Both the position numbers and the translations under genes were made by a program. A stretch of DNA of 64,000 bases from Candidatus Freyarchaeum deiterrae (lineage in GTDB: Archaea > Asgardarchaeota > Jordiarchaeia > Jordiarchaeales > Jordiarchaeaceae). The stretch spans positions 1,536,001 to 1,600,000 of the forward strand of contig CP147778.1 in assembly GCA_037305845.1 (NCBI GenBank). Reading direction: 5' to 3'. The notes under the pieces were generated by a model. It was given only the letters and a program-made list of their open reading frames with translations, did not search any database and had not been told where the DNA came from. This document shows, piece by piece, positions 8,068 to 12,153 of the stretch (the stretch's first letter is position 1; every line of letters starts with the position of its first letter).

Positions 8068-8210
8068 GGGTACGTCACCTAGCCAGGATTTCAGAAACCT
8101 GAAAGGGTGCCGACGTTTAAGGCATAAGCCCTCTAATCCTGGAGGTAAGCCGGAAAGCCAATAACTATTTGGTCCGGATTTCGAGAGTTCAAACCTCTCC
8201 GTACCCGCCA
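8068..8210 (+). tRNA. tRNA-Arg(UCU) with four BHB introns (20a/21: 8090-8103; 29/30: 8113-8127; 37/38: 8136-8147; 45/46: 8156-8179)
   Basis: Removing the four introns gives a 78-nt cloverleaf: GGGTACG TC ACCT AGCCAGGATA GGGT G CCGGC CCTCTAA GCCGG AATTC GAGAG TTCAAAC CTCTC CGTACCC G CCA; A20 Arg identity element; central helices CAGG/CCTG, GTGC/GCAT, CCTC/GAGG, CCGG/CCGG, each with 3-nt bulges. Confidence 0.9.
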
Positions 8211-9247: not shown

Positions 9248-9409
9248 TGGAGCCCCGGACGGGGGTTTCAGAGTCACACTAAAAGTGCAAGCTCTATCGA
9301 ACCCGCGACCTACAACTCACTCGGACCACATTTGGAATCTGTGGTTGTACGAGGCTGCCGCTCTACCACTGAGCTTTCTCGCCTCTTACTTCACTGGAGG
9401 AACCGAGGC
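9248..9409 (-). tRNA. tRNA-Thr(CGU) with three BHB introns (8/9: 9376-9401; 37/38: 9318-9347; 59/60: 9265-9295)
   Basis: Spliced 75-nt cloverleaf: GCCTCGG TA GCTC AGTGGTA GAGC G GCAGC CTCGTAA GTTGT AGGTC GCGGG TTCGATC CCCGT CCGGGGC T CCA; helices CTCG/CGAG, CTCG/CGAG, TTCG/TGAA. Confidence 0.92.
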
Positions 9410-9580: not shown

Positions 9581-9739
9581 TGGTGCTCCGGACGGGAGTT
9601 TCAAATTAAGTAATCACTTAGTTATTCAATAAAGTAATCACTTAATATTTTGAACCCGTGTCTAGGGATCGATTGGGCTGATGTACATGAGCCCCTTATG
9701 CTTGGCCCTTATCTTGTTTGGCCGCTACACTACCGGAGC
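9581..9739 (-). tRNA. tRNA-Glu(CUC) with three BHB introns (21/22: 9702-9717; 34/35: 9673-9688; 59/60: 9598-9648)
   Basis: Spliced 76-nt cloverleaf: GCTCCGG TA GTGT AGCGGCCAA GCAT A AGGGG CTCTCGA TCCCT AGAC ACGGG TTCAAAT CCCGT CCGGAGC A CCA; helices GGCC/GGCC, GGGC/GCCC, TTCA/TGAA. Confidence 0.9.
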
Positions 9740-11073: not shown

Positions 11074-11140
11074 AAACCAATCACCCGCGAATAGTGAATA
11101 CACTGACGGAAAATATAGAATAAAGTATAAAAAATATTGG

Positions 11141-11326
11141 GGGCCCCTAGCTCAGCCTGGTATGAGCGCCGCGTTACCCATACCTTATCACTAGAGGAAT
11201 GGGAGCGAAGGCAACTTGATACCAAAATCGCGGAGGCCGCGGGAAACCCCTAACAATAAGTAAGGGTTCGCGAATTCGAATCCGCTGAGAATCCTCTCAA
11301 CGGCGGAGCTCCCGCGGGGTCCACCA
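11141..11326 (+). tRNA. tRNA-Ala(GGC) with four BHB introns (33/34: 11176-11209; 37/38: 11214-11227; 53/54: 11244-11274; 59/60: 11281-11309)
   Basis: Spliced 78-nt cloverleaf: GGGCCCC TA GCTC AGCCTGGTAT GAGC G CCGCG TTGGCAT CGCGG AGGCC GCGGG TTCGAAT CCCGC GGGGTCC A CCA; G3:U70 Ala identity agrees with the reconstructed GGC anticodon. Confidence 0.92.
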
Positions 11327-12046: not shown

Positions 12047-12153
12047 TGGTGCGGCTGCCGGGATTTTCAGAAAAGTGATTTTTCACTTTTTATTTGAACC
12101 CGGGTAACAAGCTTGGAGGGCTTGTGTCCTAGACCAGTCTGGACTACAGCCGC
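12047..12153 (-). tRNA. tRNA-Gly(UCC) with one BHB intron at 59/60 (12064-12092)
   Basis: GCGGCTG/CAGCCGC A CCA; CAAGC CCTCCAA GCTTG anticodon arm; TTCA/TGAA helix with hairpin intron; 78 nt spliced. Confidence 0.92.

Follow-up and report, generated by a model that had tools for sequence, protein, structure and literature searches.

Pre-tRNAs with nested introns have been described in the Thermoproteales, for example the pre-tRNA-Pro of Thermofilum pendens, in which the motif of the last intron forms only after the others have been processed (PMC3978253, PMC3728597, PMC4033280; we cite Sugahara 2007 and 2008 and Tocchini-Valentini 2009 through these papers and PMC3241643, as excerpted there). 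The gene described below resembles these precursors in its nested motif and in being paired with an EndA of the alpha2-beta2 type carrying the crenarchaea-specific loop (PMC3241643), but the Thermoproteales genes have at most three introns and differ in lineage, tRNA and intron positions. In the red alga Cyanidioschyzon merolae, the removal of introns is likewise sequential, as shown by RT-PCR, with the 37/38 intron leaving last (Soma 2013, PMC3728597). This, however, is a eukaryote with at most three introns per gene, and because its motifs fold independently, the order is set by stability and not by nesting.

Within the Asgard archaea, heavily interrupted tRNA genes are known from Freyarchaeia and Atabeyarchaeia, for which Valentin-Alvarado et al. 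2024 (PMC11291895) reported introns in 92-95% of tRNA genes. The genome considered here belongs to the intron-rich Freyarchaeia/Jordarchaeia lineage, and the positions of its tRNA genes agree with those in Supplementary Data 4 of that paper, which identifies it as the complete Freyarchaeia genome published there. The published table gives 38 tRNAs, three of them with four introns, Arg(UCU), Ile2(CAU) and Leu(GAG). A preprint (Goswami et al. 2026, bioRxiv 10.64898/2026.10.13.758758) finds genes with as many as five intervening sequences in three Asgard families, including the one studied here; its census excludes genes that tRNAscan-SE misses, and it states that splicing in Asgard cells has yet to be demonstrated for any of its newly identified intervening sequences. 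We found no treatment of splicing order in the accessible text of PMC11291895 or, by term search, in that of the preprint.

The window analyzed here is a stretch of 64,000 nt from the genome of Candidatus Freyarchaeum deiterrae (referred to as G000 in Table 1), which is a single contig of 3,576,204 bp. A locus of 186 nt on its forward strand (window 11141-11326, genome 1547141-1547326) consists of five exons of 35, 4, 16, 6 and 17 nt separated by four introns of 34, 14, 31 and 29 nt (Table 1). The five exons are colinear within the 186 nt, which distinguishes the locus from split and permuted tRNA genes. The unspliced locus received no tRNA call from ARAGORN and none from Rfam at the gathering score, but the predicted spliced product of 78 nt was recognized by ARAGORN as tRNA-Ala(ggc) with a complete cloverleaf and with the features of an archaeal tRNA-Ala, namely a GGC anticodon, G3:U70, A73 and an encoded CCA. 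A motif-aware parser, trained on the other tRNAs of this genome, gave the same four boundaries and all 21 of 21 stem pairs. Because this parser over-splits some other genes, the comparative evidence for the junctions, presented below, is the stronger support. The original prediction of a tRNA-Ala(GGC) with four introns is therefore borne out by ARAGORN, by the parser and by orthologues that lack single introns, and the positions it gave for the GGCA and TTCGAA exons, as well as its count of 108 intronic nucleotides among 186, are correct. The rarity that it implied was overstated, given the four-intron tRNAs already published for this genome, the up to five introns in three Asgard families and the nested, order-dependent introns of other archaea.

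Two features of the predicted tRNA may be recorded here. Position 21 is U (window 11163), where A is usual, in all Freyarchaeia-type orthologues, and the U32.U38 apposition in the anticodon loop (position 38 is window 11228) is also common to intron-free relatives. Upstream lie two genes that we take, from their translations, to encode an Sm-like protein and L37e, and downstream is an intron-free tRNA-Val(GAC). When the whole closed genome was scanned with a profile that allows intron states, no other locus emerged as an Ala(GGC) candidate. The genome has no contiguous (intron-free) Ala(GGC) copy, and the published 38-gene table contains neither an Ala(GGC) nor an entry at these genome positions. 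Since there is no contiguous copy and since GCU and GCC together account for about 52% of the alanine codons in the long reading frames of this genome, the gene is probably needed by its host.

Table 1. Positions of the tRNA-Ala(GGC) exons and introns and of other features named in the text (window positions unless G000 or a locus handle is given).
Feature	Position	Strand	Description or basis
Possible archaeal TATA-like element	11110..11117	+	About 24-31 nt upstream of G1; putative, by eye
Exon 1 (tRNA 1-33)	11141..11175	+	5' acceptor strand with G3, D-arm, 5' anticodon stem, U32 U33
C28-G31, exon strand of intron 1 central helix	11170-11173	+	Part of exon 1
Intron 1 at 33/34, 34 nt	11176..11209	+	Parse, comparison, folding
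Exon 2 GGCA (34-37)	11210..11213	+	Entire anticodon and A37; spliced product and relatives
Intron 2 at 37/38, 14 nt	11214..11227	+	Bulge-helix-loop type; parse, comparison, folding
Exon 3 (38-53)	11228..11243	+	3' anticodon stem, variable region, 5' T-stem; spliced product, parse
Intron 3 at 53/54, 31 nt	11244..11274	+	Parse, folding; position recurs in sister family and Ala isoacceptors
Exon 4 UUCGAA (54-59)	11275..11280	+	T-loop; spliced product, parse
Intron 4 at 59/60, 29 nt	11281..11309	+	Parse, folding, isoacceptor comparison
Exon 5 (60-76)	11310..11326	+	3' T-stem, 3' acceptor strand with U70, A73, encoded CCA; spliced product
tRNA-Arg(UCU)	8068-8210	+	Introns 20a/21, 29/30, 37/38, 45/46; exons 9, 8, 8 nt; in published table
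tRNA-Thr(CGU)	9248-9409	-	Introns 8/9, 37/38, 59/60; published; missed by ARAGORN
tRNA-Glu(CUC), by parse	9581-9739	-	Introns 21/22, 34/35, 59/60; published as tRNA-Met(CAU)
tRNA-Gly(UCC)	12047-12153	-	59/60 intron; published; missed by ARAGORN
ARAGORN 'tRNA-Leu(tag)'	62107 to ~62205	-	5'-truncated, slightly diverged tRNA-Ser(UGA) copy, anticodon-stem intron included
tRNA-Pro(GGG)	G000 1798836-1799053; L043:237-454	+	Outside window; five introns, 15/16, 24/25, 25/26, 37/38, 59/60
tRNA-Glu(UUC)	G000 1790195-1790046	-	34/35 intron; absent or mislabelled in published table
tRNA-Pro(UGG)	G000 1501840-1501690	-	Absent or mislabelled in published table
tRNA-Leu(CAG)	G000 1631535-1631720	+	Absent or mislabelled in published table
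tRNA-Cys(GCA), by parse	G000 1326639-1326821	+	Published as 'Ser AGA'; four or five inserts
Catalytic EndA	G000 1921033-1921278 (L031:1147-1782)		Crenarchaea-specific loop, K44-equivalent lysine

At each of the four introns, the ends agree with an EndA cut after the second base of a 3-nt bulge located 3' of a 4-bp helix between exon and intron. The central helix of intron 1 is formed by CGCG and AGCG (11204-11207) with a G31.A mismatch, and the motif further comprises bulge UU|A, a 5-bp inner helix (CCCAU/AUGGG), bulge AA|G and an outer helix of 2 bp. Intron 2 has no inner helix; its CCAA (11222-11225) pairs with UUGG (U32 U33 G34 G35), its bulge is AA|U38, and the anticodon stem serves as the outer helix. 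In intron 3, C48-G51 pairs with CGCG (11269-11272), the inner helix is AACCC/GGGUU, the bulge is AA|U54, and there is no outer helix of exon sequence. The central helix of intron 4 (UUCG/CGGA, 11304-11307, including one G.U) takes its exon strand entirely from exon 4, and its outer helix is the T-stem, which is complete only once intron 3 is gone. U54 thus has a double role, as the third base of the 3' bulge of intron 3 and as the first base of the intron 4 central helix. The central helices of introns 1 to 4 contain 3/4, 4/4 (after removal of intron 1), 4/4 and 4/4 pairs. The strict bulge-helix-bulge form requires that the primary transcript already have four central pairs flanked by both outer helices. 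None of the introns has this form: all four are relaxed, by the mismatch in intron 1, by the missing inner helix and the as yet unformed central helix in intron 2, by the lack of an outer helix in intron 3, and by the dependence of the outer helix on intron 3 removal in intron 4.

Such relaxed motifs are compatible with the splicing enzymes of this organism. The genome encodes RtcB (near G000 1452798) and two EndA paralogues (near G000 1921033 and 1733422). The closest solved structures to the catalytic paralogue are those of Aeropyrum and other crenarchaeal-type catalytic subunits, and it retains the Tyr/His/Lys triad, the C-terminal Trp and a loop lysine equal to Aeropyrum K44; the other paralogue lacks the His. 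In PMC3241643, K44 of this loop is tied to the cleavage of relaxed and non-canonical introns, and the two-subunit type of EndA in these Asgards is also described in the preprint (bioRxiv 10.64898/2026.10.13.758758). The host thus has RtcB and an EndA of the broad-specificity type. Given this loop in the encoded protein, relaxed recognition would be expected and not surprising, and the mismatched 33/34 helix would fit a two-subunit enzyme bearing the crenarchaeal broad-specificity loop.

Orthologues of the gene were found in all five congeners and in three genomes of a sister family, which we infer to be the Jordarchaeaceae, and eight metagenome loci were added to the comparison. The four-intron state occurs in this genome, in the congener G002 and at the loci L044 and L045/50/51, whereas both T-arm introns are absent from the other four congeners (G001, G003, G004 and G005), which, like L047, have only the 33/34 and 37/38 introns. 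Genes of the sister family are interrupted at 33/34, 53/54 and 58/59 without a 37/38 intron; in six of its loci, GGCA and then TCGCGG follow the 33/34 intron directly. Five more distant Asgard genomes contain the uninterrupted arm CGCG-TTGGCAT-CGCG, the loop of which is identical to that of the predicted product. In addition, there are Ala isoacceptors in which the 53/54 intron or the 59/60 intron occurs alone. The four introns are therefore insertions relative to orthologues lacking them, and orthologues with different subsets of introns lead to the same mature sequence. Across the two families, the exons are nearly invariant and the intron loops variable.

The comparison also bears on the individual motifs. 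The base opposite G31 is mismatched (A or G) in 11 of 11 Freyarchaeia-type loci, and the sister family has a perfect CGCG/CGCG helix; the inner helix of intron 1 shows a C-G to U-A swap among orthologues. The last six bases of intron 2, comprising CCAA and the AA of the bulge, are invariant at 11 loci representing seven distinct intron-2 sequences, the loops of which vary. The intron 4 strand is CGAG (4/4 pairs) or CGGC (3/4) in relatives. The exon strand of every central helix is invariant, which leaves no room for two-sided covariation in these helices. When intron 2 was shuffled, 7% of the shuffles could pair 4/4 with UUGG, G.U allowed; for that reason the helix in a single gene is weak evidence, and the case for it rests on conservation among related, and hence non-independent, genomes.

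Within one genome, alanine isoacceptors have T-arm introns in common, and these introns appear to travel from one isoacceptor to another. Intron 4 is identical at 20 of 29 positions to the 59/60 intron of the tRNA-Ala(UGC) of this genome. In G002, the 53/54 and 59/60 introns of Ala(GGC) are nearly the same as those of Ala(UGC), and the 53/54 intron is found in Ala(CGC) as well (L002, L018 and L027). In congeners without T-arm introns, the Ala(GGC) and Ala(CGC) T-arms are the same (L003, L004 and L006); where it was seen, the intron-free T-arm of the four congeners equals that of their Ala(CGC) over 24 bases. The sharing of T-arm introns and this 24-base match suggest gene conversion between alanine isoacceptors. 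The Ala(UGC) copy at L018 is missing its 3' acceptor strand.

We computed folding energies for all 16 splice forms. As the original prediction had stated, the UUGG/CCAA helix spans the 33/34 junction: the precursor offers only AAGG opposite CCAA, which allows 2/4 pairs. With intron 1 present, the intron 2 motif cost +6.2 to +7.6 kcal/mol, and after its removal +0.3 to +1.3 kcal/mol. The pair probability of the helix was 0.0 in the precursor and rose to 0.82-0.91 once the exons were ligated. The idea that CCAA might hold the nicked ends together for RtcB was explored with a dimer model, which has no coaxial stacking; in it the nicked and unligated form showed almost no pairing across the nick. 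On the basis of this drop in cost and these pair probabilities, removal of intron 1 before intron 2 is a clear prediction that is well supported in silico, and intron 2 is, by computation and conservation, of the nested type, in that its motif forms only after an earlier removal. Intron 4 depends on intron 3 for its outer helix alone. Its motif cost +4.0 to +5.7 kcal/mol with intron 3 and +2.6 to +3.0 kcal/mol without it, and the cost of the intron 3 motif rose once intron 4 was removed. Because both motifs share U54, the T-arm introns would be cut one at a time, with a predicted bias of 3 before 4 that is not a rule. The claim of an obligatory order thus finds support for introns 1 and 2 as a prediction from folding, but the 6-nt exon imposes no order on introns 3 and 4. 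The accompanying claims of a single mismatch in the 33/34 helix (CGCG/AGCG, G31.A) and of relaxed recognition agree with the sequence and with the EndA loop, respectively. Intron 1 itself favored a slipped register (probability ~0.97), and its splice motif cost +6.5 kcal/mol; the enzyme would therefore have to capture a minor conformer, and the first step may be slow.

Our preferred explanation, which we regard as very likely, is that the locus is a functional single-copy Freyarchaeia tRNA-Ala(GGC) gene, the transcript of which is matured by EndA and RtcB with intron 1 removed before intron 2. We infer that the gene is expressed and that in the cell its precursor goes through repeated rounds in which the two-subunit, broad-specificity EndA cuts and RtcB joins. 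Intron 1 would be cut at its relaxed bulge-helix-bulge and U33 joined to G34. The UUGG thereby created would pair with the CCAA of intron 2 atop the anticodon stem, allowing removal of the canonical 37/38 intron second. The T-arm introns would be handled singly, with the 53/54 intron favored first, though not forced, because the T-stem, which closes the 59/60 motif, becomes available on its removal; the anticodon arm and T-arm introns would be independent of each other. Such a dependency would protect the 4-nt anticodon exon, as both of its flanks would never be cuttable together. One could envision instead a functional gene with the same four introns in which the order is a mere preference, with the relaxed EndA also cutting intron 2 out of a precursor containing intron 1, either at a 2-bp helix or by single-bulge nicks, and with ligation leading to the same product by either route. 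EndA of this type does cut relaxed motifs, weak central helices exist elsewhere in the genome (2/4 pairs at 37/38 of tRNA-Pro(GGG), for example), 37/38 introns of the red alga are removed even where they have no central helix (PMC3728597), and the intron 1 motif is itself costly in the energy model. However, CCAA is kept in 7/7 distinct intron-2 sequences, though it can pair fully only after ligation, and the G34-C and G35-C pairs have a probability of 0 in the precursor. We therefore think that a mere preference is unlikely.

We consider it considerably less likely still that the locus is a relic, either non-functional or left unspliced, and that GCU and GCC are decoded by tRNA-Ala(UGC) or by the product of a gene that escaped detection. 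The gene's absence from the published tRNA table (PMC11291895) would be in keeping with a relic, and our scan was not exhaustive, given that His, Phe, some Ser and initiator Met tRNAs were also unrecovered. Yet a relic would hardly have near-invariant exons next to variable loops across two families, 21 of 21 stem pairs intact, and a splice motif matching every intron end. Least probable of all, in our judgment, is a different set of boundaries, with either the first two or the last two introns leaving as one block or with the 59/60 site sliding by 1-3 nt. TCC begins both intron 4 and exon 5, and cuts at 60/61 to 62/63 would consequently give the same product, but among the sliding positions a 4/4 helix is available, by hand and by parse, at 59/60 only. 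Excision of a block would remove the anticodon or the T-loop, and the block helices pair poorly, with 1/4 pairs for site 1 with site 2 and 2/4 for site 3 with site 4; exon skipping by composite motifs was rejected on the same pairings. A composite motif that joins site 1 to the 3' end of intron 3 does reach 4/4 pairs, CGCG being palindromic, but it has no flanking helix.

The CCAA of intron 2 complements a junction that is absent from the DNA, and the sister family has the 33/34 intron without the 37/38 intron. This fit can be explained by selection acting on a random insertion, by an older intron 2 that was lost in the sister family, by independent gains of intron 1, or by insertion into spliced RNA. 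The last of these, in which intron 2 joined a gene already holding intron 1 by entering a spliced or part-spliced RNA that was then written back to DNA, strikes us as doubtful. It requires that the CCAA match was templated and not just selected, and that the neighboring intron 4 nt away was left un-erased. An allele with the 37/38 intron but not the 33/34 intron was not found by exact pattern in 400 Asgard genomes, and in a scan of all GTDB genomes with a shorter pattern, the matches listed look like chance bacterial ones. No donor of intron 2 was seen in the parses of the other tRNAs of this genome.

Among the 38 genes of this genome that we parsed for introns, two have exons of 5 nt or less that are backed by relatives, Ala(GGC) and tRNA-Pro(GGG). 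We counted only such exons because the parser invents micro-exons, with Arg(CCG), Arg(UCG) and Ser(UGA) as cases, and mis-parsed Pro(GGG). Junction-spanning helices are thus uncommon in this genome, and Ala(GGC) is not the extreme. Like Ala(GGC), tRNA-Pro(GGG) has a micro-exon between adjacent introns and a second helix that fits better on the spliced junction, but with five introns and a one-nucleotide exon (U25, at 1798918) it is the more extreme; the published table gives it three introns (PMC11291895). The helix variants of its 25/26 intron are a better match to UAUG, as present after splicing, than to the UACA of the unspliced form, and this intron is missing from one sister-family genome. 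In contrast, the published four-intron Arg(UCU) and Ile2(CAU) genes have internal exons of at least 7 nt, so their central helices span no junction.

Several further genes in Table 1 are absent from, or labeled differently in, the published table. The 34/35 intron of tRNA-Glu(CUC) sits inside the anticodon, with the helix GGGC/GCCC. The truncated tRNA-Ser(UGA) copy, which lies 20 kb from the full gene (G000 1618383-1618246), is possibly the attachment-site remnant of an integrated element. Genome scans did not find His, Phe, Ser(GCU), Ser(CGA) or initiator Met tRNAs, and none was found by two further scripts, the second of which yielded just 29 matches for 41 known genes.

Taken with its precedents, the tRNA-Ala(GGC) gene would work like the nested pre-tRNAs and is one of the heavily interrupted Asgard tRNA genes, a class already published. 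There are precedents for its number of introns, for its relaxed motifs and for its nested order, and the gene does not establish a new mechanism; what may be new is the gene call itself and a CCAA that complements a junction absent from the DNA. The gene supplies the reader of GCU and GCC that was missing from the tRNAs published for a reference Asgard genome, and shows that whole genes are lost to standard annotation. Its natural two-, three- and four-intron orthologues offer a compact substrate for the study of splicing order by Asgard EndA and RtcB. If true, entry through RNA would give a direct clue to how Asgard tRNA introns arrive, and junction-spanning helices would then be a safeguard that renders exons of 1-4 nt viable.
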